Notes under the pieces: model-generated
Told to the model about the DNA's origin: nothing
The model's input: only the letters and a program-made list of their open reading frames with translations
Databases searched by the model: none
Translations under genes and position numbers: made by a program
From: an uncultured archaeon
Lineage (GTDB): Archaea; Asgardarchaeota; Lokiarchaeia; Sigyniarchaeales; SOKP01
Assembly: GCA_964525635.1 (NCBI GenBank)
Contig: CAZGJX010000021.1
Coordinates: 25,558 to 44,777, forward strand
DNA: 19,220 nt
Direction of reading: 5' to 3'
In this document: positions 1-19,218 of the stretch, in pieces
Position numbering within the stretch: position 1 is the first letter of the stretch
How the letters are laid out: each line of letters starts with the position of its first letter

Positions 1-3000
1 TTGGAGCATGATATTAATGGAAATCGTCTTTTTATAGATGAGGATGGTGATGAATATCCTGATTGGCGATTTGATTTATATGATTTAATGAAAGTTTTTT
101 CATCATACGAATCATACCCTCTTACTAATGACAATTCCTTAACTTTCATGGCATTATTTAATGAAAGATCGGGTTTAGCAACAACGGATATTGTAAATAA
201 TTATATAGGAGATTTGAACGGTAATACAACATGGGATCAAGGGAGAAGAGGGAGTGCTTTATTCTTCGATGGTCAGGGAGATAAAATTATATTTGGTTCC
301 CCATGGCAAATGGGAGATGCAAATCATGATGGTAATGTTGATATTATTGATGCTCTTATTATTGCTCAATATTATGTAGGGCTAAATCCCCAGCCATTTT
401 TCACAGATCTTGCTAATGTGGATGGGAGCGGAACTATTGATATTGTAGATGCTCTCTTGGTTGCCCAATTTTACGTTGGTCTCTTACGTGAATTTCCAAA
501 TCAGGTAGAATCTTCGGTTCAATATATGAATTATGATTATGTTCAATATGGAAATATTTTAGATAATGCTTTAAGTAATTCAGATCAGTTTGTCATAACA
601 GCATGGATCAATCTAAATGAACTTCAATCTAATGAAAGTATTAATGGAATTCAAAATGTGTTTTTGGCAAAACAAAATGTTTTAGAATTAGGAGTTAATG
701 AATCTGGATATCTTCAAGTATATATAAATACATCTGAAGTATCTACAAAAGCCGAATATGGTATTAATGGAGCCATAATAAAAGATCAATGGACATTTAT
801 TGCTGTTCGGTATAATCAAAGCGATGTTGATGTCTTCATAAATGATCAATGGTATTTCTCAGCATTAGGGAGTATTGCAGAACCATGGGAAAGTTCTTCT
901 CTTACAGAACAAGGAGGAAATTTCACCATTGGTGCCGAGACATCTTCGTATAGTTGCTTTTCAGGTTTAATTGATGAGGTCTCTGTGTTTAATGAATCTA
1001 TATCCAATTTAAAAATCGAAGAACATAAGGGATATGATATGGTCCAATTTGAATGTCAGGTTCTTAAGAATGAGAATGAGGATTCTTGGACACCAATAAC
1101 AGAAAATGAAGAAATTGATAGACCTCTTTTGCTTAAAACAATTCTCCCAGTAGATCTTAATGCTCAAGTTGATACAATAACCTTTTATTTATCAGACTCA
1201 GAGCCTAATTTCCTCAATCCTGATGATGAGGCAAATTGGATTGAAATTATTGAATTTAATGGGACTCATCAAGAATATACATGGTGTATTGATTCATATG
1301 ATATTCCTGATTCCAATTCATGGTTTTTTATAGCTAAAGCAACGGATATTTACAATGATACCGTGTATGGGTATTATAACTACAATTTTTCTATTAATCA
1401 TTTAAAAGATTTAGCAGAATTTAACTATATAGATCTTGAGGGAAAAATTAACCAAAATTCCAATATTGGTGTTGTGGCTGAAGATCCTTTTGAGAACCAT
1501 ATTACATCCTTTAATGTTTATGTAAACAATTCAAATAAAATTGATTATCTAACATCTACCACATTTTTTGATATAAGTCAAAATAATAATCTAATTACAC
1601 TCCAATCTTTAGAAGAATGGAGTATTCTAAATAATGTAGAAGAACAAGAAATCTCTCTTAATTTCATCATTGAGGCTAATCTATCTTATTTCAATAGAGA
1701 GTATTATTTATTTAACTATACCTTATCAGAAATAATTGTTGATCTCCAAGCACCTCAAATAGCATTGCTTACAGGAGGTATCTATAATTTAAATTTGGGA
1801 GATGTGTATTCAGATCCTAATGAATATATATTACATGCTGCGATTGAATCTGCTCCAAGTGATTTTAAATATTTTGAGGTCTATTATAGATATGCAACGC
1901 CTTTAAATGATGCTTGGACTTTCTATGATTCATACCAACCAGGGAATATCCAACCTTATTATGATTTCTCAATAAATATTCGAGATTTAAAGGATGATCA
2001 AAAAATTGAGTTTATGATAAAATCTTATGACAACCTAGGAAACTCAAAAATATTTTTAAATGATTCCTATTGGTTTACAAAAGATATGAATAACCATGAT
2101 CATATATACATAGAAGGGATTGATGATGTAATAATTTATCAATTGGATGGTAACGGAATGATTGATATCAATCCAATTATATACCCTTTCGATAACGATA
2201 TCGATCGTGTAAGGCTTTATACTACATATGAGACATTTAATTTTAATATCAAATCTCTTGGAGAGGATTATATCTATTTTGATGAATCAGAATTTAATAT
2301 CCAGCTAAATTCCAATTATTATGATGTGTTTGCAGGGGAATTTAGAGATATCCTCATTACAATAGAACTATTTCAGGGTAATGATTTAATTAGTCAGACA
2401 CAAAGAGTAATTACAGTTACTCAATATCAATATCAAAATATTGTCAACATATCATCTATGGATGTAGATAGGGATACAGGTGATATTTTTCTTAATTTTG
2501 AGACAGGAGGGAATACATATAGATCTGAACATGAAATTCCTTATATTGTTCAAAATCAAAATCCTATGATTGAAATCTATAATTCTAAACGTCAGCTTAT
2601 TGATACTGTTATTCTATATCCCGTTAAAGATGATTCAGGAACTTATATATATAATCAAGACCAAATCGAGATTATCAACAATAAATTCAGTCTTTCATAC
2701 CCCTCTCTTAATCAAGGAGAATGCATGGTCTCCATAGATAAAGTTATCATTAACGGATCTGAATATAATTTTTATTATTATTTTGGTTCTGATGAAATTA
2801 TTATAAAATTAAGTAGTTCAAAGTTATTAGATGGGATATTTGGTCAGAGTATTCCTATCCAAATTCAGTATTCTATAAGCACCTCAATAAAGCAAGAGCA
2901 TCAATATTTTGGTAATTATAATTTCAAAAGTTTAACACAAGGATTCTTCACACTTGAGTGCATGTTTTATGATATATCTTCCTCAATTGTTAGAAATAAT

Positions 3001-6000
3001 ATTGATAATCTGCCAATTGATTATGAGGGTGTTAACATTTATCCCCAATTTGAAAGTATATTTTCAGTTCATCCTGAACATGGTTCATTAACATTTATTC
3101 TTGATGATATATCAGGAATTAAAGCTTATGATTTTAATATGAATTTATCAGGTTCTTGGTATATAGATGGACAATATTACACATTTTATCTTCATGATAC
3201 TAAGATCGAAGAAGGTTCATATCCTATAGCTCTTATAACCGAAGATTATCTAAACCAAGTAAGTACCTGTGAATTTATCTTAAAAATAGATAAAACACCA
3301 CCTAGTTTCTCACAGGTCTACTCTAATCCCCAGTATTGGGGGGGATTATTTTTAATTGAAGCAAATATTAGTGATTTTTCTTCCTTTAATATAGATGTTG
3401 AAATAAAACATATTTCAGGAGAGATTTATTCAGATATAGCATTTACAGAAATTGATAATAATGGTTTGACGCAGATTTTGGTTGATACAAATCAGCTACA
3501 AAATGGATTGTATGATGTTATCATTATAGCAACAGATAATGCAGGAAATGTAAATGAGTTAATTATTGAAGATCGTTATTTCGATAATGCTTATCCCCTG
3601 ATTGAAAGCATAGAAGAATTAGTAATTATGGATAACGACTTTATATATTCAGAAGAACTTATCGATATTATTTATTTTAACGAGAGAAAATATCTAAATC
3701 TCTCTGTCTATGATGAAATGTTCGATGAATTTAGCTGGGAATCCATAAATCATACATATTTCGAACAATTAGGCGTAAAAAGTGTTGAGATGTATTATAC
3801 AAAACCATTAACCTGGTATTCGATTCCTATTGCGGGAGACTTAAATTATAACCAATTAACCTATGAGGTCTTGGGGGATTGCAACTCTATAAAACAAATT
3901 AAAAAATTACGAATAAATTCTTATGAAATTGAGGAATTTACCGTATATAGAAGTGATGATTCTCTATATCTCAAGTTAGGTGAACAATATAGATATCTCT
4001 TAATCTCAAGTAGTACCATTGAAGCTCTCTACTATGAGGTAATTAAGACACCTCTTTCTTTAATTTATAATTCACAATTTCAGACATGGAGACTTAATTC
4101 CTCAGAAACAGATTATTTTAATATTTCACGATACCTAAATATATCAGAAGGAGATGAGTTCTTATTCTGGTTTAGCATAGAGGATGCCATGGGTATTAAT
4201 GGCGCTGAAGCTAACCAATTTATTTCAAAAACCTATAGGGGTATTTTTGATAATATACTTATGCAGGACAATATTGGAAAAGAGATTTACCAGTTTAGTC
4301 TTGGGACAACTATAGAGGGAGAAGGTATCTTAGTATCGGGTTCAGAGATTATGCAAGATTGCATGATTCAAATAAATATAAGCTCACTTATAAAGAATTA
4401 TAATGGAAATTCAGATATTAATAAAATATTTGTGTATGGTTCAGAAGACTCTATTAGCTTTACACCTCTTGGAAAAGCGTATGCATCTGAGAATGAGGAG
4501 ATATGGCAGTATTATTTATCTCCTGAACTTGTCTCTGAAATTACTTCAAGTCATTATTATATTAAGGTAATCATATTTGATAGAGCAGGAAATTATTTTG
4601 CCCAAAATAGTACTGTTAAAATCTTTGATTTCGGTGAAATTCAACTTATATCCGATATCGTATTTGGTGATCTCATACAATATGATGGAGATCATTTAGA
4701 TTTTACATTTACAGGAATGATTGATAATTTTAAAAATTCAACTGATCTTTATGAATTAATAATTGAATATTATGATTTTAATCAAAATGAATGGATTCCT
4801 CTGGCAACCAATCCGACTGAGGTAATATCTCAAGGATCATATGCAAACTATAACGTAATGTGGGATATAGAACAAGATAAGGAATTTCTTAATTCCATTA
4901 ATAATTTCACCTATGAATATCTGCCAATGAGAGTGACACCTTTAACAGATAATAATATATGGGGCACATGGGGCATGTTTAATAATCCATTAAATAATAG
5001 TTACAGACCACTTCTCATTTCAATAGAAGGTGTTATGCTAAATATTACGATTTATGATTTTGATCCAAATGATGGATGGGTTATTAATTCAAGTATAAGT
5101 GTTGAGGAGCCTATCTCTTCCGTCGATGGAGAAATTTTTAAATTGATTGATATAAATGAGGATAATTCCGAGGAAATTCTTCGTATGTGTCCTACTCATA
5201 TTGATGTAATTTATTGGGATGATAATGAAAATACATGGAAGCTAAAAGAGAATATTACAAATCTCTCTGGTTATAATTATTTAGCTTTTGATGTATTTTT
5301 TGATGAGGTTTCAAGATTAACCTATTTAATAACAGCACAGATCGATCTATTTGGGTGTATTACTCTATGGAAATATGAATTTACCTCATCTTATAGTTTA
5401 TTGGTTGTAAATTATATGAATGCTCCTGAAAATTTCACCCCCACAGCTATAAATGCTATAGAGTCTTTTGGCGTGAGTGCCTCAAAATCGATAATTGTTG
5501 CGGGACTAATGAGAAACTCCTATAGTTCGCAACTATTCGAATTTGATTTCGAATTTAATTTCAAAAATATAATATGTGATTATATTATAGGTAAAATTTC
5601 AATAATCGAAATAGGGGCTCAAAATCCCGATACGATCATGTTAGGAATAGAACGGCTCATGGTTTCTCAAATGGATATTGTTGTTATTTTAAAATACAGT
5701 AGTGCTTCTCAAACATGGATACAATATCAAGTATCAGATTTTGATGAGTCCGCTTTCAGAATAATTGATCTTCTCTGCATAACAGAAACTAATTATCAGA
5801 AACTAATTATCGCATCTGAAAATGGTATATTCCAAAATATATTAACGTTTACAGAAGATATCAAGACAATTATCAGCCCTGTCTGCTTTATTGAAGAAAT
5901 CTACTATAAAGAGGATCTAAATTCAAGCACTCCAACTATTGGCTTAAATCATATTCCTATTCAAAAAATTAATTCAATATATTATAAAGTAGATAATCAG

Positions 6001-9000
6001 AATTGGCTTGAATTACCTCGAAATTATTATATTAATTCCCGTTATGAAGTTAAAATAGATCTCACTGCTATATTTGAAAATCTTCTGAAAATAAAAATCT
6101 GCTATAGCTTTCTTTCTTTTTCTGACGAAAAAAAGTGTATAATTGATCCTAGTTTTCGATTCTATAATGCAAAAAGAACCAATAGAGAAAAAATAACAGC
6201 TTCAGGGACTTTTTATAATCTTTCTGAACTACCTATGCTATATTTAAATCAGGGCACATACTACAATGATCCATATGCAGATTGGAGGGAATTCAATGAA
6301 TTATCCTCTTGGGAGGAGAAAGGAATAAATTATCAATACGTACCAATAGTAAGCGGTCCGGGAACAACGGTAATCTACCCAGATGTAAGGACAGGTTGGT
6401 ATGATGATTTAGCTGAGGATTTCTACATGCCTGAATTAGACAATTCCTTTGCATATTATGGAGAGGATTATGAATCTGCCTTATTATCTGATGATCTTAC
6501 TGGTTATGGCGATTTTACCCAAAATAATTGGCTGGATGGAATATGGTTATCAGATCCCGCACTTTCTCAATCATATAATTTTACTGAAATGTATAACTCC
6601 CAGATTCATGACGAATCCAATCCATATGGATTATATAATTATTATGATTATGATGGGGATGGAATTGATGAGCAAAATATTCTTCTGAGAAATCGTCTTG
6701 TTGATTATAATCCAATTATGAGCGGTGATTCTGGAATCGGTGATTCAGGTTGGCTTCCTACAGATAATAATGTCTATGAATCCACCTATAGCTTTCAATA
6801 TGTAGAAAATGGTCAATTTCCAGATGATTCTGAATGGACACGGGAAGTAGATGAATTCGGAGATGCAAGAATAATCCAAGAAATGAACAATCACAGTAAA
6901 GTACTCCAACTTTCTGATTTTGAAAGTGGTAACAATAATGTAAAAATATCCTTAAATTTCTCAGAGTCTCAAGAGAAAAATTTTATTGAATTTTACTGGA
7001 TGACTGGAGATGCAGAAGATCCTATGGATTTTGCATTCTTACAATTAAGAAATGGAGAAGAAGAAATCTTGGAAATAAGATCTAATATTCAATTTATCTA
7101 TGTTGATGGTAAAGGACTCCAAATTACACCAATTGTTTTAAATAATCATTTATGGTATCATTATCGAATAGAATGGGATTGTACTAAAGGAACGTGGAAT
7201 CTTTATCTTAATAATGAATTAATCTGTAAAGATAGGTTATTTATCAATAATGTACCAAATATAGATAATCTATTTATTTATACAGAAGCAGGTAATTGTT
7301 ATAGCTATTTTGATGACTTTGGATTGCCCTGGGAAGGTTATACTTCAGGAGATAATCTTACTCCAAAAGAAATTCAAGAGTTCTCAGATAGTTCCCTAGA
7401 GGATGTTGAATATGCATTGTGTAGTTGGAATGAATATATCGCATTAGAGATGCTTAGTATTAATAGTTATTATGGTCTTGAAATTACAAATAAAATATCT
7501 ACAATTGATAAAGAAGGATTAAATGATATTCAAGTTGCATTTGATGTAGGTATGATAGGTTCGGAAAGGAATCCAATTACACTTCAAATATATAATTATA
7601 ATCAAGATAGGTGGGAATCTATTTTATTATCAGATGATAATAGCGCAAAAGAGTTTTGGACCTATCCTACACCTTCAATTGATGGAAGATTCCGACCTCA
7701 AATGGGAACCGATATCGCACTTCCAGATGCCTATATGAATACAATTTCTTTTGGGAGTACTTTTCCAATTCAAATAATTGGAAATGAGGTAAAGTTTGAT
7801 CCTTCACTTCTAAATGGCTCTAACTTTTTGTTGAACGATTATCATTTAATACCTGAATATTCACATAATTATAGGATAAATAACAAATGGTCTTCTGATG
7901 GTCATTTTATCATTTATGAGGAAAATCATCCAGTGAAAAAAATGCATAAATATCAGTTAGAAAATATTAAAATTGATCCAAATGAATTTCAGACAACTTT
8001 AGATCTTTTCCCAATTGAGAGCTCAGACTATATTACTCAAGATTTTTATAACGATTATTTAAATGATTTTAGTGAGTTTAAATTACGACTTATAACGAAA
8101 AAAGAAGAATCTGCTCCTTCTTATTTCTGTATTGGAGATTTCAAGAGTTATTGTCATACTGATACTAATTACTTAAATTATGCCAATTTTGAGAATGCGG
8201 GAAATTATAATACCACGATAAGTGATTCACTGGATCTTACTCCTTCTGGTTTAGAATTAAGAAAAAATTCAGGATTTAAATTAAAAGAAGATGATTCTTC
8301 TATAATCTTTAGAGATACATTTTCAAATACAAAAGATATTAAATGGGAGTTATATGGAACCGAAGAAAATGAGTTTGAGTTAGTTAGCCTTCCAATTGAT
8401 GATACTTGGGTTGATTCAGATCATAGAAATGTTAATTATGGGAATGATGAAAATTTATATTGCCAGACGGAAGGAAAATGGTATGATAATCCTTTATTAA
8501 CTCATTTAGTCTATTTAGGATTTACTGATTATCCTCAATATTTGAAAGATAACACAAGAGGAACTTCAGATTTCTTAAGATTATTTGGATCTCTTGGAGG
8601 AACTAATGGAAATTCTCAGACGTATTTTGTATATAAAACTTCTGAATTTGATGAAAATGCAATTACCTATAATTCAAGGCCCCAATTATCCAAGGATTTT
8701 ATTGGTGTACGTTATTGTTATGAGGAATTCTCAGACCAATGGATTACCATACCCATAAACGATCCTGAATATCTCTCTTATTATGTTTTAATGAATGTGC
8801 TCTCTTGTTATGAACCAGGGGCAGTATTTCATTCAAAAGAAAATAATATGAACATGCCTGAACTTCATCGTTTTATTAGAAAAAATTATCATGGAAGTGG
8901 TATGGCATATATGCAGACAAATAAACAAGAGACTTTAATTTTGAAAAGCTCTAAGTACAATTTAGTTCAATTAAATGAAGGGGATTATTTGATAGTTGAA

Positions 9001-12000
9001 TTTAAGACGACCGTTTCCAATAAAATTACATTATCTATGTTATCTGATGATATGTATGTAGAAAACTTTACCATTGTACCAGAGAATAATTATATCCATG
9101 AAAAACAATTCATAAAAATTCCAATCAATAGCTCAATAGCTTTTGATCAATTAATGTTTACTGGAGATTTTAACCCAGAGGAATATTTTATTGCTTATGA
9201 TATAGCAGCATATCCAGATGAAGAGAGATATAGTGAGGATTTTATAGAATATGATTATTATATTAATGGAGAGGATAATTCAATCATACTGAATTATGGC
9301 AGTAATGTCTATGATGCAGATTTTCAATCAATTTATTCCGAAGATGGTAAATATTGTACCATTAATTCTGAAATGAAAAATAGTAACCAAAATAGAGTTG
9401 AGATGGACGTTCTATTTGAAGATATTCATACAGAGGATATTGAATCTATCAATAAATTAGAATTGAAGATTAAAATAGATGATCTTTCCATCTCCCTAAA
9501 TTCATTTGAATTATTTTTGTGGAATTATCAATATCAAGCAAATATGGGTACTTATGAGAAATATGACTTTTTCAAAAGGGAGGATTATTTAGTTATTAGT
9601 ATTCCAAGAGGATCATTCTATAAATTTTATAATTCGGAAAATGGAATGTATTCATTTAAACTCAAATTAATTATTGATAATGAGCAATCTTTTACAATAA
9701 ATATAGACTCAATTAAACTGTCTGCGTTTATTCCATACCACACGTCATACGATATTTACAGATCAGATATGATCTTTACAAAATTAGCTGAATTTCAAAG
9801 TGGTAAGCTTTTATTTTCTCTCAATGATGAAATATACATTGAAATTAATGATACCGAACTGAATTATTATGGTCATCTAAATACACTTTCTTTTGTCTAT
9901 GAATATAATCTTTTTAAATTATCTGTTTATTTAAATAATAAAATCATTCTTAATCAGACAGGGATCTCCCTTAATAACATAAATCCTTGCATTGTAACCA
10001 CGTATGGAAAGAGTTCTACAAGTGGCCTTAAGATTGAATCATTAGAATCTTTATTTTTACAATATATTGAAGATGAGCAAGATTTCAGAGAATATAAAGA
10101 ACAGGTTAGCATAAGTTCAATGAACAATATGAACGTTGATTATTTATTTAATGAAAAAATGGCTGAAATAAGCCCTGAAAATACTTTCTTTAAATTCTCT
10201 TCTGATATAGAGGTAATCTATTCCTTCTCTGATGAGATGGATTCTATAAATATTTTTAATTATCAATTAAATCCAAGTTTTAGATCAAATAATAGCCTGA
10301 ATTTATGGAACTCAGATAAATATTATATGGAAGAGGGAATTATACCGAGTGGATATTCCCAATTTGAACGATCATATTTTAATGGTTCTTATGGGAGAGA
10401 ATATATTGAAGAAAATGCCCTTTTTATTAATCTTGATGATTCCTTATGGACACAGTTTCGACGCGATTTAAAATATAACGATATGGAAGATGGAACTCCC
10501 CGAATTCCAGATCCTCAATGGCAAGCAAGTGGACAGATAGATTCTTATAGAATAGCCCCAGATGGATGGTCTCAGTATGATGATGATATATATTCGTGGG
10601 TATATTCCGAAGATAAGAGCGGTTCGGATGTTGAGGGAGACCGGAATTATGCGAATTGTCTGGAGACCTATATGTTTGATACATTTTACAGTCAATATGC
10701 TGCTAGTGGCTATTATATAGCATCCCTTGAAATTGAGGTAAAGGTAAGAATTGATTGTGTTGGGCAATGGGATGATAATGCGTCCTTTTCTCAAATCTCA
10801 TTATTCGCGGTAAGAGACTATGATGGGAATATTGTAAACGAATATAGAAGTTGGGCAGAGCTAGAAAATGATAATCTCTGGCACACTTATAAATGGGATT
10901 TAACAAATTATTCCCGAGGTGCAGATGCTTGGATTGATGATGGACAGGTAAAAATCCAGATTGCAACACAGGTTGTATGCCCGCAATATTCACATGGAAT
11001 AGTAAATCAGCAAGTAAATAAAGCAATTGCAAGAATTGCTTGGGCAAAAAAAGGATCGGAAACCCATGGAGAATCATGGGTTGGATTTAATTTTGAAAGT
11101 GTTAATGGAGTTAATCCGCTTGGAACAAATAATGATTTCTTCTTTTATATAGATGCAAACTCCAATTATGATTGCCAAATGTGGTTTGACTCTAATGCAA
11201 TATCTAATTATATAGACATTAACGAGGAGATGGGAGATAATCCTATATTTCTAGATTTCTATGGTAATTGTAATGAAATCTATATTCAATTTAAGGATTT
11301 TTTAAATTATCCTGTCTCTTTAGACCCTCCTTTGGAAAGAATCATTGATATTGATTTTATGTACCTTGAGATGATAAATCAACCTATTTCCAAATATATC
11401 TATAATGATAAATCTATTTTATTAACTGAAGGATTATCAAGGAGATTGTATAATATCAATGGTTCAGATAAATCTACCGTCTTTGATGATGGACATTTTG
11501 GGAAAAACTGTGTATCGTTTAATTTACAAAATTCCATATTAACTCCTATATTTGGAAGAGAGAAAGGCGAACAAATAAGACTTGACCTAAAGCTTGAGGA
11601 TTTGGATTTATTTTTTAAATTATATCCAGATAATTTCCCAAATGATAGTAATTTAGTTGAAGGAGGGAATCCTCTAAAATATAATATCTCCTTGCTAGAT
11701 TATAAAAATAATCGATTCGGTAAGAGTTCTATTGATGATATTCAAATTCCTTTAATAACCCCCATTGATCTAACATTTAATGAACATGATTTAAAATCAT
11801 ATGATAATTTAGATTTGGAACTTAGTTTTAATTTGAATATATTATTGGAAAATAGAAAGAATGATATTGATTGGAGTTTACGTAATAGACTTGTATTTTA
11901 TAATTTTAGAACACAGCAATGGGAGGATTTTAAAGGGGAAATTAGAATTAAGAATAATAATATAAATAATGCCGTCTGGAATTATGAAGATGCTTCCAAT

Positions 12001-15000
12001 CCTCTATTTTACTTACAAAATATCGATGCTAACCAATTTGTACCTATAAGAAATGAAAATCCCGATTTGCAGATATTTAATCCATTTATTATTCAAGGGA
12101 TTAATAATGATACAATACAAGGAGGAAGAATGAGGATTGCTTTACTTTCATATATCCTTCCAGGTAACTTCTCAGAGAGTCAAGATATTTATCTTTCATA
12201 TGAGCGAGAAGATCCCAATATACCCATTAAAATCTCCCAAAATCTACAAATAAATGAATGTGTACTTTTATGTAATTCGCATAAGGTCTTATACCAGAGC
12301 TCTACGTTTGAATCAGAAATTAATTTAGATGGTGCTTACGAAATAGATTTAAATTCCATGTCCAATCCAGAGATAGGAGCGGTAATGAAAATCACAGAAA
12401 AATATGAAAACACTGAAAATCAGATTGAATTTATTCCTATATTTGATTATTCCGTCTCTGTAGATAATATCCTTTCAATTCGACAATGTAATATGAAACA
12501 TCTATTCACAAGCATTATCATCGAATATCTTCCTCAATTAGAGTTAATACAATATCCAGAGTATCCCAACTCATGGTTTGCTCCAAATAATTATCAACAT
12601 TATAGCTTACCCATTTATCTTTCAGATGTAAAAGATAATAATACAGACTACGGTTCATATGTCCATCCAAATATTCCAATAGATTATATCATGGGTTTTA
12701 ATGAGGGGTATGGCCTCTATATCAACTTTACAGACTCAATTGAACCAATTGGGACACCTAAAGCTTCAATATATTATAGCAAGGCTGATGGTAAATATAC
12801 GTATAGTATTCCGATTGAGGATATATTATTATTTAATTGTAAATTTTTGGAGAATCCATTAGATCTTTTAGGAGGTGAAATTCAGGTGGATCTTAATTTG
12901 GGACTTAATAATCTAAGATATTCTAGTATGTCCCAATTAAGGGCAAGCGATTTTAAAGTAAACCTTCGCTTTTATAAATATTGCGAGGGACAAGAACTAA
13001 TTGAAATCGGTACAACAGCAGTATTATTGAACACTTCAAGACTTGATTTCAGTTATCGTCAGATTAATGTTCCAATAGATTCAATTATTTTTTCACAAAA
13101 TGGTGCAGAACAATTAGGAGAAATCCTAACAAAAGGGAGTAAGGATAATTTATTAATAAAAATTCAAAGTACAATAGCAAATATAACCGTAGATGGGGCC
13201 ATTTTTAAGGGAGATTTCGCCCAGCAGATTATAAATGCAGCATTTAAGATAAAATCCCAAGAAGCAGACCTTTTATACAATAAAAATGCAATTTTTGAAC
13301 CTTATATATCTATTCCCCAAAATCAAATAGAGTTATCTTATAGTAATCAAGGAAAGTATCAAATCCCGATAAGTGAGCTATTATATGATTTTGATTATGA
13401 TATTATTGATTTATATACCGCTACCAATGATGTACTATGTAATGATGATTATATCTATGATCCTCTTGTACAAGAAATTACTTTTTTGGGTAATTATTCA
13501 ACCTATAAAGGAAAATTATATGTAAATATTAGTTATAAAGGATTTGAATGGAATAAGGATTCTATCTCAACATTAGAGCCGATTTTTTTTAATTTCTCAG
13601 GTTCTTATATTGAGAGATATACCCAATATATTGAAATCAAAGTTGAATTTAATCAAGATGGTATTCCTGGTTATGAACTCCGTGATTTTGATCATGAGAC
13701 GGGAAGGCTAATTCTTTGTGAGGAAGTGAAGGATGCGAGTCTCATGGATATTTATTTATACAATTACCAAAGATCTAAGTGGGAGATTGTTAATGCTGTT
13801 GTATATGAACGAATCAGTATAACTCAAGAAGGAATAATTCCCGCTTATTCTTATATTCTTGATAGAGAATTTACGAATTTTGAGAATTACTTCCAAAATA
13901 TAAATTCAGATGATTTCCATATGAAGGCTATATTCTCAGTCAAAGGGGATATTGGTAATAGCTTTTCTTCGAAATTGAGTTTAGGTATAGAGAATGCATC
14001 CTGCATGATCTATTACAATCTTCCTACAGAACATATTAACTTGAATCCTATAATTGATTTTGATATTGATCTCACAGAATTTTATCAAAGTAAAGACAAT
14101 GTTATAGAAGAAGTAAAACTATCTTTAGATTATTTTTCGGACATATCCTTTAAAGGCTTGAGTGAAATTGATCAAAATGTACTCATTCAAAAGAGTTATA
14201 ATTTATATTTTCTGGATAAATACTTCCTTGATTATATTTTGGTTAATTTTTCAGAAAATTCAATTATTTTAACTAGTGAACAACTCGAAAGATTTTTATT
14301 TACATCACAGGATCATCAAAAGAAATATATAAGGGCTCAATTAGAATATGATTGGAATTGTATTTTACAGATAAATTCCAATGTAAATTTAAATATGGAA
14401 GTAATTGCGTTTCTACGTTTACAAAAATATGAATTATCAGTAAAATATACATCGATTAAGACAAAAATGATCTCCGCACAGCAAGGAGATTATGATTATC
14501 AATTGCAGACAATAAATGCACCAAATTATATAGAATCTGATGGGACTCTCTATACTCTAGATAACGATGATGACATTGATATTGGTATTATGGGAGGATT
14601 CTTACGAAATGTGGATACCAGACAGAAATTAATGGTTAGGCAAAAATTAATCTATAAATTTTCAGAAAGTCAGGATGGACCATATAATATTATATTGGAT
14701 CAAGATGATACCGATACTATTCTCAGATTTACTAATTTAATTGGTTGTTTAGAAGGACCTATAACATTTAATCTGAATAATAGCCAACATTTCTCATTTT
14801 ATGCTGATTTCGAGATAATGAACATCTCAATGTATTATGATAATTTAGGGAATTATATAGGTGATATGATTCCTTCTTCAGAGGACTCTGGATGGTTTGA
14901 ATATGTATGGAATGATATTCAAGCTTTTACCCAGACTCAGACAGGAGATATGATATCAATTATCTTTCAATTGGAAGATATCTTAGGAAATTTAAACTCA

Positions 15001-18000
15001 ATTCGATATAATTTTACTGTTGATTATACTGTCCCTAATCCTTCAATTATTATCGGTCAGGATAATGATAATTATGAGATGAATCAGATAGCAACTCCAT
15101 TTACCTCAATTCAATTTATTCACAATGAAGAAACTGAATATGGTTTTAGCGAATTCTATAAGATTATTGACCTTGTCTCAGGGCAGGAAACTTCATGGAT
15201 AGAATTTAATTCATCTAATATCAATCATCTCAATGATTTTATTAATCTATCATCGAGATTTAAAATATTATATAAAATTATTGATATGGCAGGTAATATT
15301 GGATTATGCGATACTTATAATAATTATAATTATAAATATATTCAATTTTCTACGGAAACAGATCTTTTCTGGTATGATAATGATAATACCATTAATTTAA
15401 ATAGTGTTTTATTAGAGGAAAGAGAGTTAATCTTTCAAGCAGATTTCAATCAGACTTCAGAACTGGACGTATTAATTAATGGGTTTCATTACGGCTCTGC
15501 GATATATGACACGCTAAAAGATTATTATAAAGTGAATTTTGGAACTGAAAATAACTATGATTCATTGATCTGCTACTCAAATTCGCTCTTAAGCCCATAT
15601 ATTACCTCTAATATAAATCCCCTCGATCATATATCATGGGATATTTCAAATGAGGATTATTATGCTGTTGTAAAGCATGTATTATTAAATGGCGAGATTG
15701 AGATCGTAAATAGTCTTACCTATGATAAAATAACAACTTTTAACATTAATAACATTTATGATCGTGGGTTAATCCTTTCTGATTTAGTGAGAATTAAGCA
15801 AGTCTACTATTTTAACTCCTCTGATAGTGATACAATTTATAATTTGGATCTTGGTGACTATTTTGTTGATCAACAAGGTAAAATTACATGGCCAGACACC
15901 TCTCCTATTCATACTATATATAATGACTCTCAAGATGTAAAAGATGGACTTTTATATTTTGAATATGATGCATCTTGGTTTTCTAATGAGCTAAGATTAC
16001 AGAATGCAGACGGGTTTTTCATCAATCTTTCCATCCCTGATGTTTACTATCGACACACGACGATAGAACAATTAGCAATACAATTTATTGATATATTCGG
16101 AAATACCTTTGCAAAGACATATTCCAATATAGATTTAAGCAGATATTTCCAACCTGAAATTCGAGATTTCTACAATGAAAGAATTTTCGGTCTGGGAGAT
16201 ATGATGACAATACCGCTTTATATTCCTTTAGAAGAACTTGCTATGTCGAATATATACGCTGATCTAGACTTAAATCTATTGGAATCTATAAGTTTCACAA
16301 TTACCGATTCTGATATGTGGCCCTCATCTTTCTATGAAGAAAATGATGAAATTTCTGTATTAAATTTACCATATCAAAAATTTGCCATAAAAGATATTAG
16401 CCTCTATAATTTAATAATCGATGATATCCTTGAAAATAAAAATGGTATAGTTATATCTAGTATAGAAGTGAGAGCTCCTGAGTTCTATAATTATTATGCG
16501 TCATCAGAATTTCAATTAAAGAAAGTCAACATACCCTTAACGGATGTGAAAGTGTTCTATAATAGAAAGGAAATAACCGAGTGTGTAGACGTGGAATATT
16601 CGGATGATATTGAGGTCTATTTCTATTTTAACCACTCAAATTCACCTATTCTTATGGATGACCTAATGACAATGCAATTATGTCTTACTGATAACTCTTC
16701 TGGAGGTATCTACACCCAAGGAAATATCTATTTTATATCAAAACCCGATTTCTTGAGTCCTGCTGGTTATTTCAGCAAATATTATTATACGAAATTTAAG
16801 GTCCCAATAGAGCTTGACAATTATAGTTTAAAATTTACATCCTATGGAAGCCCAATTCATAATATCTATTTAGAAGAAAATATCTATTTTAAGATAAATG
16901 TCGTTCAAGAAAGCCTTTCAGAAGCCACACCTATTTATTTAGAACAAGATAATTATAAGCTAAACTATGAGGATTCAGTTATAATAAAAGGATGCCTACT
17001 GGATAATGATGAATATCTTGTTGAGGATAAGTTATATAGTTATAGATATCAAGATGCAATCGATGGTGAGAGCGCCTATCCATTATCTATTACCTTTCCT
17101 TATGAAAATGATAATATTATTGATAAATCTGAATTTATGGTCTATTATCTAGACGAACAGCTTGAAAAAGTACTACTTTATGTTAATTTTTATGGAGAGC
17201 ATTATAAGGATACCTCAATTTTAGACTTCAAGAGAGATCCCAAAATTAATTTTGTTAATAATGAGTATATTCTTACAATATATTGGAATTCAAACTCTCT
17301 TGATTTCATAGATTTTAACACCGAATTATTAATTTCAATTAAAAGAATTGATGGAAGGACGATTACCCCTATTTCTTATTCAGAAAGGGATCAATATGGC
17401 AACATACTATATCAAAATTACGTAGAGATTCCGTTTGTAAAATATGATATGATTCAAAATAAATATATAACTAAACAGAATTTTACAGAACCTTTTACCA
17501 TTACACAGCAATTAATGACCTTTGAGACTGAAAATCCGAGTGTATTACTACATAGACCAAAATATCAGGAAGGACCGAACACTATAGAGTTGGATATATT
17601 GGGAATTCAATCCGTCTATGTTAATAAATCCAATTCCTATCTTTTTGAAAGATTGGATGAGGTAAATTATTCCTCCTATATCACCCGTTCAGGAGATCTC
17701 CATGTCGATTACCATAATTTCTCTCAAGGAGATATTGTGCAAATTAACTATTATACATATCTTCCAATAGAAATAGAACATCCATTAAATAGTCCTATTT
17801 CTGAATTATATTCTGTTCGAGTTTATTCAATGGAAAATACTTCTCGGAGATATGAATTTACAAGTGATGAGATTGAAATTTCCGATGATGGACATCGATT
17901 GTATTTACCACATTTATACACTAATTTGGCATATAATAATTTTACCATATACGATAAGTTTGAAGTTCTATATTATAGTAGCCTTACAAAAAATATAGAT

Positions 18001-19218: not shown

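Follow-up and report, generated by a model that had tools for sequence, protein, structure and literature searches.

A giant open reading frame in a Lokiarchaeial genome probably encodes a megadalton, membrane-anchored surface protein with binding-type modules

The giant gene characterized here most probably encodes a megadalton, N-terminally membrane-anchored surface protein, which would act as a scaffold or adhesin and would be tied into a cohesin-dockerin network (we assign a probability of roughly 0.7 to this interpretation). The window, i.e., the whole analyzed stretch of 19,220 nucleotides on contig C21 of the genome (G000), represents the middle 19.2 kb of one real, intact, and very large gene, and this gene belongs to a small family of paralogous giants in the genome of a Loki-type Asgard archaeon. 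Sequence searches and structural models indicate that the predicted ectodomain consists of a long series of binding-type modules without sequence repeats, namely a dockerin, a LamG domain, Ig-like beta-sandwiches, a propeller, and a CBM96 module. The original prediction had proposed a giant surface protein, which is in agreement with the predicted anchor, the acidic ectodomain and the binding modules, but the protein is not of the repeat type and it does not have a signal peptide.

Within the window, frame +1 is devoid of stop codons for its full length of 6,406 codons (positions 1-19218; all features described below are on the plus strand), in contrast to the other five frames, which contain 456-926 stops each and have longest open runs of only 35-127 codons. 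In a control, the sequence was shuffled 200 times at the mononucleotide level, and no open run was longer than 164 codons. The GC contents at codon positions 1, 2, and 3 of the window are 0.395, 0.285, and 0.223, respectively, which fits to a coding sequence, and the residue composition is of the ectodomain type all along the window, with 4-8% K+R and 13-17% D+E. Therefore, the claim that an open reading frame of more than 6,400 amino acids fills the window holds, and the search for an in-frame stop in the translation revealed none. It had also been noted that the frame is absent from the ORF track. This is true, but it does not reflect a failure of annotation; the reason is technical, because the listing rule by default omits ORFs that are open at both ends.

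The window is limited by a scaffold gap of 100 N on the 5'-side (C21:25458-25557) and by the contig end on the 3'-side (C21:44777). The first 55 bases of the window (positions 1-55) are identical to the 55 bases just in front of the gap (C21:25403-25457). This duplicate is an assembly overlap with k=55 and not a biological repeat, and the gap is spurious; a second 100-N gap of the assembly, which is localized on contig C2, has the same k=55 overlap of its flanks. When the overlap is collapsed, the frame continues upstream and gains 829 codons up to an ATG at C21:22916, so that the window contains codons 830-7235 of the gene. Downstream, the gene stays open until the contig end, and thus there is not a single stop across 7,235 codons at a GC content of 30%. 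The visible residues alone amount to 844 kDa, in accordance with the expected mass of well over 700 kDa. The suggested extension along the contig has therefore yielded the start codon and, as described below, a predicted anchor of nine helices, but the contig ends before a stop codon is reached.

The presence of a gap in the scaffold, the end of the contig within the gene, and the interruption of two paralogues, by an in-frame TGA on C5 and by a frame change on C63, might be taken to indicate that the gene is an assembly artefact, a chimera, or a decaying pseudogene. However, we regard this as extremely improbable in the light of the uninterrupted 7,235 codons, of an uninterrupted relative of 11,376 codons in a sister genome, and of the alignment of the joined sequence across the gap junction to three homologues, which is free of any indel. 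In addition, the order of homologous blocks is identical in the C63 and C5 paralogues, in the copy of the sister genome (G001:C69), and in a protein (P0002) of an independent Lokiarchaeota MAG, i.e., in four independent loci or assemblies, and a chimeric assembly is therefore unlikely.

The homologues extend 4,274-5,199 amino acids past the position of the contig end. Judged by homology, the missing 3'-part would comprise about 4,300-5,200 additional residues, with a conserved hydrophobic helix and a variable tail at its end, and the full protein probably has a length of about 11,500-12,400 amino acids, corresponding to about 12,000 codons. No contig overlaps with the last 21-55 bases of the C21 contig end, a search of the bin for homologues of the expected 3'-stretch retrieved none besides the C5 and C9 paralogues, and an exact-match scan of the metagenome contigs for the continuation did not find any candidate. 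Two family fragments that are open at the 5'-end, C129 and C85, were considered as the 3'-continuation, but they match at least 2,500 amino acids further on and could not be assigned.

The start and the anchor had been expected outside of the window, and indeed nine hydrophobic segments are present just upstream of the scaffold gap (joined residues 271-571, identified by hydropathy). The predicted inner loops between the nine helices contain 7, 3, 7, and 18 K/R. The helices are preceded by an N-terminal domain of about 270 amino acids, which is basic (pI 9.8), in contrast to the acidic ectodomain (pI 4.3). An N-terminal signal peptide, which had been expected upstream, is absent, and its place is taken by this basic domain and the polytopic anchor. 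From the hydropathy and the charge distribution it is predicted that the basic domain is cytoplasmic, that the nine helices with their K/R-rich inner loops anchor the protein according to the positive-inside pattern, and that the ninth helix could be a signal-anchor, which would export all downstream sequence. The ectodomain would then project from the cell surface. Conservation of the anchor module extends to the C63 and C5 paralogues; the N-terminal module has no match in Pfam or NCBIfam and no usable match in the language-model atlas. Within the window, neither a signal peptide nor a convincing transmembrane helix was found, as had been stated, and its single hydrophobic peak falls within the beta-propeller.

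The first recognizable module of the window is a type I dockerin with two calcium-loop segments (positions 313-468; window residues 105-156, joined residues 934-985). It matches Dockerin_1 of Pfam with an E-value of 8e-07 (29.6 bits, cut-off 22.9), the dockerin of the ScaB adaptor was retrieved from the PDB sequences (4uyp_B, E-value 4.3e-05), and both loops of the pattern D/N-x-D/N-x-D/S-G...D can be read in the translation. A dockerin is present at the same position in G001:C69, but it is absent from this position in the C63 and C5 paralogues, and therefore it cannot be essential for the core function of the family. The genome contains 25 dockerin modules in a genome-wide Pfam search, including that of the giant protein, and cohesin modules are encoded on C10, C110, and C90, four of which score above the cut-off. 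The cohesin proteins of C10 and C110 combine a signal peptide with a hydrophobic, C-terminal anchor that is followed by basic residues, while the C90 protein contains three cohesins together with a dockerin that is 58% identical to that of the giant protein. It is predicted that the membrane-proximal dockerin plugs, in a calcium-dependent manner, into the cohesins of these surface-anchored proteins of the same genome, and docking of this kind would tie the giant protein into a cohesin-dockerin network. Because the giant protein carries an anchor of its own, the role of the dockerin would be cross-linking or recruitment and not anchoring.

Bacterial cellulosomal components and adaptor scaffoldins (ScaB dockerin, 4uyp) likewise contain type I dockerins with two calcium loops, and, like in cellulosomal systems, the genome also encodes surface-anchored proteins with cohesins. 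In contrast to cellulosomal components, the dockerin is internal and membrane-proximal, and the giant protein does not have a catalytic CAZyme module; Pfam and NCBIfam revealed no glycoside hydrolase or similar catalytic module linked to the dockerin, but only the LamG and CBM96 binding modules. Dockerin-containing giants have also been described for Omnitrophota (bioRxiv 10.1101/2023.11.21.568195). These are likewise predicted to be anchored and extracellular, they combine dockerins with carbohydrate-binding folds, and a role in attachment has been proposed. However, they are bacterial, have at least 30,000 amino acids, are highly repetitive (dockerin and thrombospondin repeats), and have C-terminal transmembrane and intracellular regions, whereas the protein described here is archaeal, non-repetitive, and has a single dockerin as well as a polytopic N-terminal anchor.

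The dockerin is followed by a LamG/concanavalin-like lectin domain (positions 532-1011; window residues 178-337, joined residues 1007-1166), which matches Laminin_G_3 of Pfam with an E-value of 1.2e-12 (48.6 bits, cut-off 27.6). Further downstream, a carbohydrate-binding module of the CBM96/DNRLRE type is present (positions 8392-8763; window residues 2798-2921), which matches CBM96 of Pfam with an E-value of 4.3e-13 (49.9 bits, cut-off 26); the match of the same region to DNRLRE_dom of NCBIfam (E-value 3.9e-06) is below the cut-off of that family. Window residues 3201-6406 do not have any match in Pfam, NCBIfam, or the PDB sequences, which agrees with the statement that most of the sequence is outside of families that can be named, and the language-model atlas added only weak LamG-like leads for window residues 3201-5150, with scores of at most 0.80. 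Scans with Pfam and NCBIfam did not detect an enzyme family in the 7,235 visible residues, and neither did the structural models, which covered about 2,350 residues. The reported lack of NRPS/PKS motifs was confirmed by the Pfam and NCBIfam scans, which did not reveal condensation, adenylation, ketosynthase, or carrier-protein domains. The second class of proteins that had been considered, repeat adhesins of the Bap/SiiE/LapA/RTX type, was rejected because internal sequence repeats are missing: a comparison of 250-residue tiles with one another using phmmer gave no match at E<1e-3, and Tandem Repeats Finder reported a single 29-base array and nothing else.

Structural modelling with AlphaFold2, which together with Foldseek had been proposed as a check, covered about 2,350 of the 7,235 residues, and within this part it predicted a propeller and a chain of beta-sandwiches. 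The propeller is putatively seven-bladed (positions 4912-6240; window residues about 1638-2080, joined residues about 2467-2909). The model that contains it (m0145360e1e30) is weak overall, with a mean pLDDT of 56.8 and 230 unpredicted residues, but pLDDT values per 10-residue block are 59-85, mostly 70-85, at model residues of about 590-790 and 840-920, and lower (36-56) in the flanks at about 518-590 and 790-840. VIA-align superimposed the propeller (model residues of about 518-960) onto the propellers of SF3B3, DDB1, Ski8, and ARPC1 with Z-scores of 17-18, 280-300 aligned residues, and an rmsd of 4-5 Å, and the best Foldseek matches were propeller proteins as well. The best-conserved block of the family is localized near the end of the window (positions 15454-19053; window residues 5152-6351) and has 40-50% identity to C9, C5, C63, G001:C69, and metagenome fragments. 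Its model (m561021bb5a8a, mean pLDDT 75.7) is nearly all beta and suggests a row of about ten Ig/MG-like beta-sandwich domains. Foldseek and VIA-align retrieved only generic multi-Ig matches, i.e., the archaeal S-layer proteins 8c8o and 7ptp, alpha-2-macroglobulin/complement, and titin. Single domains are superimposed with Z-scores of about 7 and an rmsd of about 3 Å, but global Z-scores do not exceed 8.8 at an rmsd of 25-33 Å, and a global fold match to complement/alpha-2-macroglobulin was therefore discarded as not meaningful.

At least three paralogues of the gene are present in the same genome, one of which has 14,266 codons, and the ORFs of the family sum up to 44,868 codons, about 3% of the genome. 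Members of the giant family reach 11,000-14,000 amino acids. Relatives were found only in Lokiarchaeota, and the database entries are nearly all partial "hypothetical proteins"; the closest ones are proteins from Lokiarchaeota/Promethearchaeota MAGs and a fragment from Loki's Castle sediment. An exhaustive HMMER search with the best-conserved block against 1.84 billion representatives resulted in 77 matches, all of which seem to belong to this one narrow family, either as members or as fragments, without a bridge to any named family. Even among relatives from the same taxonomic family the occurrence is patchy, and a match was present in 8 of 41 of them. The genome carries an actin gene (443 bits). 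The bin does not contain an archaeal or bacterial SSU rRNA, and therefore the taxonomic assignment rests on protein evidence, namely on the nearest relatives, on the actin gene, and on the adjacent genes for a Rad51-like protein and a protein with a TFIIB-type zinc ribbon.

The large share of the genome that is devoted to the family and the very large, acidic ectodomain, which is rich in N, S, and Y, would also be compatible with a surface coat, i.e., a mucin- or S-layer-like substitute that forms a hydrated acidic mesh without specific ligands. In the models the conserved block is similar to the Ig-like S-layer proteins of archaea (Nitrosopumilus maritimus, 8c8o; Haloferax volcanii, 7ptp), which are also strings of beta-sandwiches and were the top Foldseek matches, and an ordered S-layer is missing from a cultured Lokiarchaeon (PMC9834061). 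However, the S-layer matches are generic, with TM-scores of at most 0.09, and archaeal S-layer proteins have only about one tenth of the size, assemble into lattices, and have their anchor at the C-terminus. Moreover, the protein contains LamG, CBM96, propeller, and dockerin modules and not low-complexity or mucin-like repeats, and the patchy distribution fits better to an accessory role than to an essential envelope. Therefore, a mere coat is unlikely, and we favor a giant scaffold or adhesin that, according to its domains and predicted folds, could bind glycans, substrates, or partner cells.

Further information on the architecture comes from the C-terminal regions of the family, for which the evidence is derived from the paralogues and the sister-genome copy, as the tail of the C21 gene itself is not in the assembly. 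Seven copies in the genome share a conserved pre-tail block, but the tails of about 670-1,700 amino acids that come after it are unrelated to one another, and G001:C69 likewise has a conserved body and a variable C-terminal region. Tails outnumber heads, because the copies on C9, C91, and C4 are headless. A hydrophobic helix at a conserved position precedes every tail, and at this helix the composition switches from the ectodomain type to the cytoplasm type. A gene of the LRR family immediately adjoins five of the eight tail ends, although the whole genome contains only 23 LRR genes; these neighbors encode proteins of about 500 amino acids and are convergent to the tail gene in three cases. 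The tails of C5 and C96 are 48% identical, and their LRR neighbors co-vary (59%). This pattern of exchangeable tails, headless copies, and linked partner genes is reminiscent of CdiA/CdiI and Rhs systems, in which a huge conserved body also carries variable C-terminal regions, and the family might function as a contact-dependent, polymorphic-toxin-like stalk that presents an exchangeable effector while the adjacent gene protects the producer. We consider this to be improbable: no known toxin, nuclease, or other effector family was detected in the seven tails with Pfam and NCBIfam, nor in the three tails compared with the PDB sequences, and the preceding helix together with the change in composition suggests that the tails stay inside the producer. 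In addition, the partner gene encodes a large LRR protein and is often convergent instead of co-oriented, and the N-terminal polytopic anchor differs from the delivery via a signal peptide/TpsB or a T6SS.

The conserved pre-tail helix, the switch in composition at this helix, and the linkage to LRR genes point to another arrangement, which we put forward tentatively, although we hold it to be less probable than not. Instead of a fibre with a free tip, the family members may form megadalton loops whose two ends are both cytoplasmic, consisting of the N-terminal domain, the nine helices, an extracellular part of about 10,000 residues, the C-terminal helix, and a cytoplasmic tail of 670-1,700 amino acids, and the loop might couple contacts outside to signalling or the cytoskeleton inside. 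The variable tail may pair with the cytoplasmic LRR protein encoded beside it, and the whole protein may represent a giant transmembrane receptor or a mechanical tether for a partner cell or a substrate.

Cryo-tomography of Ca. Lokiarchaeum ossiferum revealed a single membrane with "complex surface proteins" and without an ordered S-layer, and these surface proteins are thought to mediate cell-cell contacts that are relevant for models of the origin of eukaryotes (PMC9834061). The gene family described here provides concrete candidates for these proteins of cultured Lokiarchaeia, being of megadalton size and having a predicted anchor, binding modules, predicted cytoplasmic domains, and a putative cohesin-dockerin link. 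The proposed loop, if true, would be such a candidate as well.

Giant LamG-bearing proteins of Lokiarchaea have already been listed in surveys. In a survey of huge archaeal proteins of at least 5,000 amino acids, 12 proteins with Laminin_G_3 near the N-terminus were found in Lokiarchaeota (PMC11573180). The C21 protein, with its 7,235 visible codons and its Laminin_G_3 match in the N-terminal part, resembles this class, for which little else is annotated and the function was described as "not understood". The survey does not contain an architecture beyond Pfam. The family analyzed here goes beyond this by adding the predicted nine-helix anchor with a cytoplasmic domain, the dockerin, the propeller, CBM96, and the variable tails at the family level. 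The gene is divided by a spurious gap and cut short by the contig end, and nearly all of its database relatives are partial, and therefore protein-length surveys undercount and under-size such genes.

Giant genes have also been described on the aloposons of Heimdallarchaeia, and it was suggested that other Asgard giants may be mobile, too (Wu et al., 2022; PMC8813620). Like the giants presented there (Extended Data Fig. 7; Otus/Ephialtes), the family described here is from Asgard archaea, comprises thousands of residues, occurs in several copies per genome, and is mostly unannotated. The distribution of the family is patchy. Nevertheless, it is highly improbable that the gene is the cargo of an integrating mobile element that carries tandem giant genes. 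Aloposons are characterized by tandem genes of 3,000-6,000 amino acids, tRNA integration sites, and an upstream ParA-like cassette, none of which was seen at C21. Contigs C21, C5, C63, and C9 do not contain a tRNA gene, and neither a ParA/MinD-like ATPase nor a four-gene upstream cassette was observed, the downstream flank of the C21 gene being missing from the assembly. Instead, the adjoining upstream genes encode TPR proteins, a Rad51-like protein, a protein with a TFIIB-type zinc ribbon, and small wHTH-like ORFs.

The giant ORF that the original prediction had placed across the whole window was confirmed. Frame +1 contains no stop in 6,406 codons, while the other five frames contain 456-926 stops each and have longest open runs of only 35-127 codons. 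Shuffling the window 200 times never produced an open run above 164 codons. The GC content in this frame drops from 0.395 at the first codon position to 0.223 at the third; the source bin (4.45 Mb, 245 contigs) has 26.8% GC. Frame +1 is a genuine coding frame. The ORF is indeed absent from the default ORF list, and the reason is a listing rule, not biology, because ORFs that are open at both ends of the source remain unlisted. Apart from it, the window contains just two ORFs of at least 100 aa, both antisense and inside the giant gene, at 10468-10794 (minus strand, 108 aa) and 10703-11077 (minus strand, 124 aa); they are most likely spurious.

The window corresponds to G000:C21:25558-44777. 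Its 5' edge directly abuts a run of 100 N (C21:25458-25557), and its 3' edge is the contig end. Bases 1-55 of the window are identical to the 55 bases that precede the gap, and at another 100-N gap of the assembly, on contig C2, the flanks likewise overlap by k=55, indicating that the overlap is a habit of the scaffolder. After collapsing the overlap the frame stays open for a further 829 codons, up to an ATG at C21:22916. The joined protein, to which its residue numbers refer (window numbering plus 829), aligns across the junction without any indel to homologues on contigs C63 and C5 and in the sister genome G001, and thus the gene starts upstream of the window. The visible gene comprises 7,235 codons (844 kDa), in agreement with the expectation of a protein larger than the window and above 700 kDa, and its 3' end is cut by the contig end. 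No contig of the assembly overlaps its last 21-55 bases, the terminal 55-mer had no match in a scan of public metagenomes, and within the bin sequences homologous to the missing part were found only on the paralogues of C5 and C9. Homologues extend beyond the equivalent of the contig end by 4,274 (C9), 4,531 (contig C69 of G001) and 5,199 residues (C5), and therefore the full protein probably has about 11,500-12,400 aa.

Extension of the frame across the gap recovered the start and a predicted membrane anchor, which had been expected outside of the window, upstream of the gap, while the stop lies beyond the contig end. The anticipated signal peptide was not found in residues 1-270, which are basic (pI 9.8, 60 K+R). 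Residues 271-571 contain nine hydrophobic segments, called from hydropathy alone. The predicted cytoplasm-facing loops carry 7, 3, 7, and 18 K/R, whereas those on the outside have a length of 2-9 residues. Hydropathy and loop charge thus predict that the topology is N-in, C-out, with helix 9 as the putative signal-anchor for everything downstream. The anchor module is retained in the C63 and C5 paralogues (29-36% identity), and the N-terminal module has no match in Pfam, NCBIfam, or a language-model atlas. Some 700 bases before the start codon of the gene, a divergent 101-aa ORF on the minus strand (G000:C21:21885-22190, L009:11886-12191 in the extracted locus) has weak winged-helix (MarR/DeoR-like) matches; a counterpart (39.5% identical) lies upstream of the C5 paralogue, and the C69 gene of G001 is preceded by a TrmB/wHTH-like ORF of 175 aa.

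The part between residue 575 or so and the contig end is evenly acidic (pI 4.3, 4-8% K+R, 13-17% D+E) and rich in N, Y, and S. Several modules were found, i.e., a type I dockerin (residues 934-985, sequence matches to Pfam and PDB), a Laminin_G_3 domain (1007-1166, Pfam), a seven-bladed beta-propeller (about 2467-2909), a CBM96/DNRLRE domain (3627-3750, Pfam, and NCBIfam below its cut-off), and about ten beta-sandwich domains in a row (5981-7180, model with a mean pLDDT of 75.7). The propeller is based on fold comparison and a partly confident model, with pLDDT values of 59-85 per block in the core (mostly 70-85) and of 36-56 in two flanking stretches; VIA-align matched it to the propellers of SF3B3, DDB1, Ski8, and ARPC1 with Z values of 17-18 over 280-300 residues. 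The fold matches of the beta-sandwich chain are generic, Ig/MG-like, and include archaeal S-layer proteins. Enzyme families of Pfam and NCBIfam were not detected anywhere in the protein, and neither were internal sequence repeats. Unlike most giant bacterial adhesins it is therefore modular in structure without being repetitive in sequence. It is very likely that this is a real gene for a giant membrane-anchored surface protein. The anchor, the acidic ectodomain, and the binding-type modules support the predicted giant surface scaffold or adhesin, albeit not one built from sequence repeats. A membrane-anchored surface scaffold or adhesin that is tied into a cohesin-dockerin network is the most likely function, with a probability of roughly 70%.

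The source genome encodes 25 dockerins in total, and cohesin modules are encoded on contigs C10, C110, and C90. In the proteins from C10 and C110 a signal peptide is present at the N-terminus, and at the C-terminus basic residues come after a hydrophobic segment; the C90 protein contains three cohesins and a terminal dockerin that is 58% identical to that of the C21 protein. The dockerin is present at the same position in the C69 gene of G001, but is missing there in the C63 and C5 paralogues and occurs elsewhere in C63; judged from the sequences, the dockerin of the giant family is a mobile module. A membrane-proximal dockerin in a protein with its own anchor would more likely recruit or cross-link cohesin proteins than anchor the giant. 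The C10 and C110 proteins (loci L025 and L026) share a C-terminal motif that consists, in this order, of P-G-Y-D/N-L-F, a hydrophobic helix, and R-K-R-R-Q and resembles archaeosortase-type (PGF-CTERM-like) sorting signals. In the literature only an incidental co-mention linking dockerins or cohesins to Lokiarchaeota was found.

The C-terminal region can be described from tail-bearing relatives (loci L015, L018, L010, L017, L034, L035, and L030), the end of the C21 gene itself being unassembled. All these copies share a conserved block that closes with a K/E-rich stretch and a hydrophobic helix, the latter being preceded by W-K-K/R and conserved in position in every copy. Past the helix follow 670-1,700 residues of mutually unrelated sequence, and the composition switches from an ectodomain-type net charge of -8 to -12 per 100 residues to 0 to -3, with 10-14% K+R, which resembles the cytoplasmic N-domain. 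The conserved helix and this switch suggest that the variable tails may be intracellular. An LRR-family gene without signal peptide (about 500 aa, Pfam LRR_14/LRR_8) adjoins five of eight tail ends, although the genome contains only 23 such genes; genes of this kind are found on C5 (G000:C5:24238-25764, spanning L037:9239-10000 and L010:1-765), C96, C4, C129, C85, and at L031:223-1902, and the C69 gene of G001 is likewise directly followed by one. The tails of C5 and C96 are 48% identical, and their LRR neighbours co-vary (59%). A megadalton tether with both ends inside the cell and a variable cytoplasmic tail would fit this pattern, with a rather low probability. The tails matched no toxin family and no other family significantly. 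Cytoplasmic tails account for these observations at least as well as exchangeable toxin tips would. Residues 18-70 or so of the C91 tail (L018:7722-7880) have a weak ThiS/MoaD-type beta-grasp match with Gly-Gly at its end, below the cut-offs in both cases (Pfam ThiS, E 1.6e-3; TIGR01687, E 5.7e-4).

The C21 gene belongs to a group of several collinear giants, and the ORFs of the family, 44,868 codons in sum, occupy about 3% of the genome. The C63 paralogue (minus strand, 5,508 + 2,479 codons) is also cut by a contig end and has a frame change beside a run of six C (L013:7417-7438, minus strand), where the C21 gene is continuous; the frame change is due to a sequencing error or else to a genuine frameshift. 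The largest paralogue, on C5 (minus strand, 1,540 + 12,725 codons, 14,266 in total), is split by a single in-frame TGA (G000:C5:63999-64001, L011:19000-19002, minus strand) in a conserved stretch. Possible explanations are a nonsense mutation, read-through, or a variant arising from sequencing or present in the population; selenocysteine is unlikely, because the C21 gene has Asn at this position. The C9 paralogue (5,541 codons) lacks the N-terminal part and begins at the position corresponding to residue 5,983 of the C21 protein, and shorter copies of the 3' region are present on C91, C129, C4, C85, C147, and C96. An ABC-2 type transporter pair (ATPase and permease) lies upstream of several copies, i.e., on C5 (L012:4626-6552), C9, C69 of G001, and at the start of C91, but was not found upstream of the C21 gene on its contig.

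The relative in G001 is an uninterrupted gene of 11,376 codons. Among 40 related genomes, an ectodomain query matched all three other members of the genus and four genomes of four other genera, one of the latter marginally (E 9.8e-4). The identity of only 31-46% even inside the genus indicates rapid divergence of the family. With the best-conserved block as query, an exhaustive search of 1.84 billion representatives yielded 77 matches, all of which look like members of this narrow family or pieces of them. The sole database relative of nearly the same length is a partial "hypothetical protein" of 6,636 aa from a Candidatus Lokiarchaeota MAG; further relatives are from a BAJALOKI MAG (labelled Promethearchaeota and Candidatus Lokiarchaeota), a marine sediment fragment from Loki's Castle, and JGI metagenome proteins. 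The source genome contains an actin gene (443 bits), the neighbours of the C21 gene include a TFIIB-type zinc-ribbon protein and a Rad51-like protein, and no SSU rRNA was found in the bin. The relatives, the actin gene, and these neighbours indicate that the source is an Asgard archaeon of Lokiarchaeia type.

A survey from 2024 reported 12 Lokiarchaeota proteins of at least 5,000 aa, and the commonest architecture of archaeal giants was a single N-terminal Laminin_G_3 domain, the function of which is not understood (PMC11573180). Such giant genes are thus already known at the catalogue level, and the C21 gene is a new, better-described member. The hallmarks of aloposons (Wu et al.) are absent at its locus, and the "Dockerin-type" giants of Omnitrophota differ in being bacterial and repetitive with C-terminal anchoring. 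A further large ORF of the genome (G000:C55:9485-17917, minus strand, 2,810 codons), which is unrelated to the giant family by BLAST, has about 54 hydrophobic peaks and, if real, encodes an extraordinarily polytopic membrane protein.
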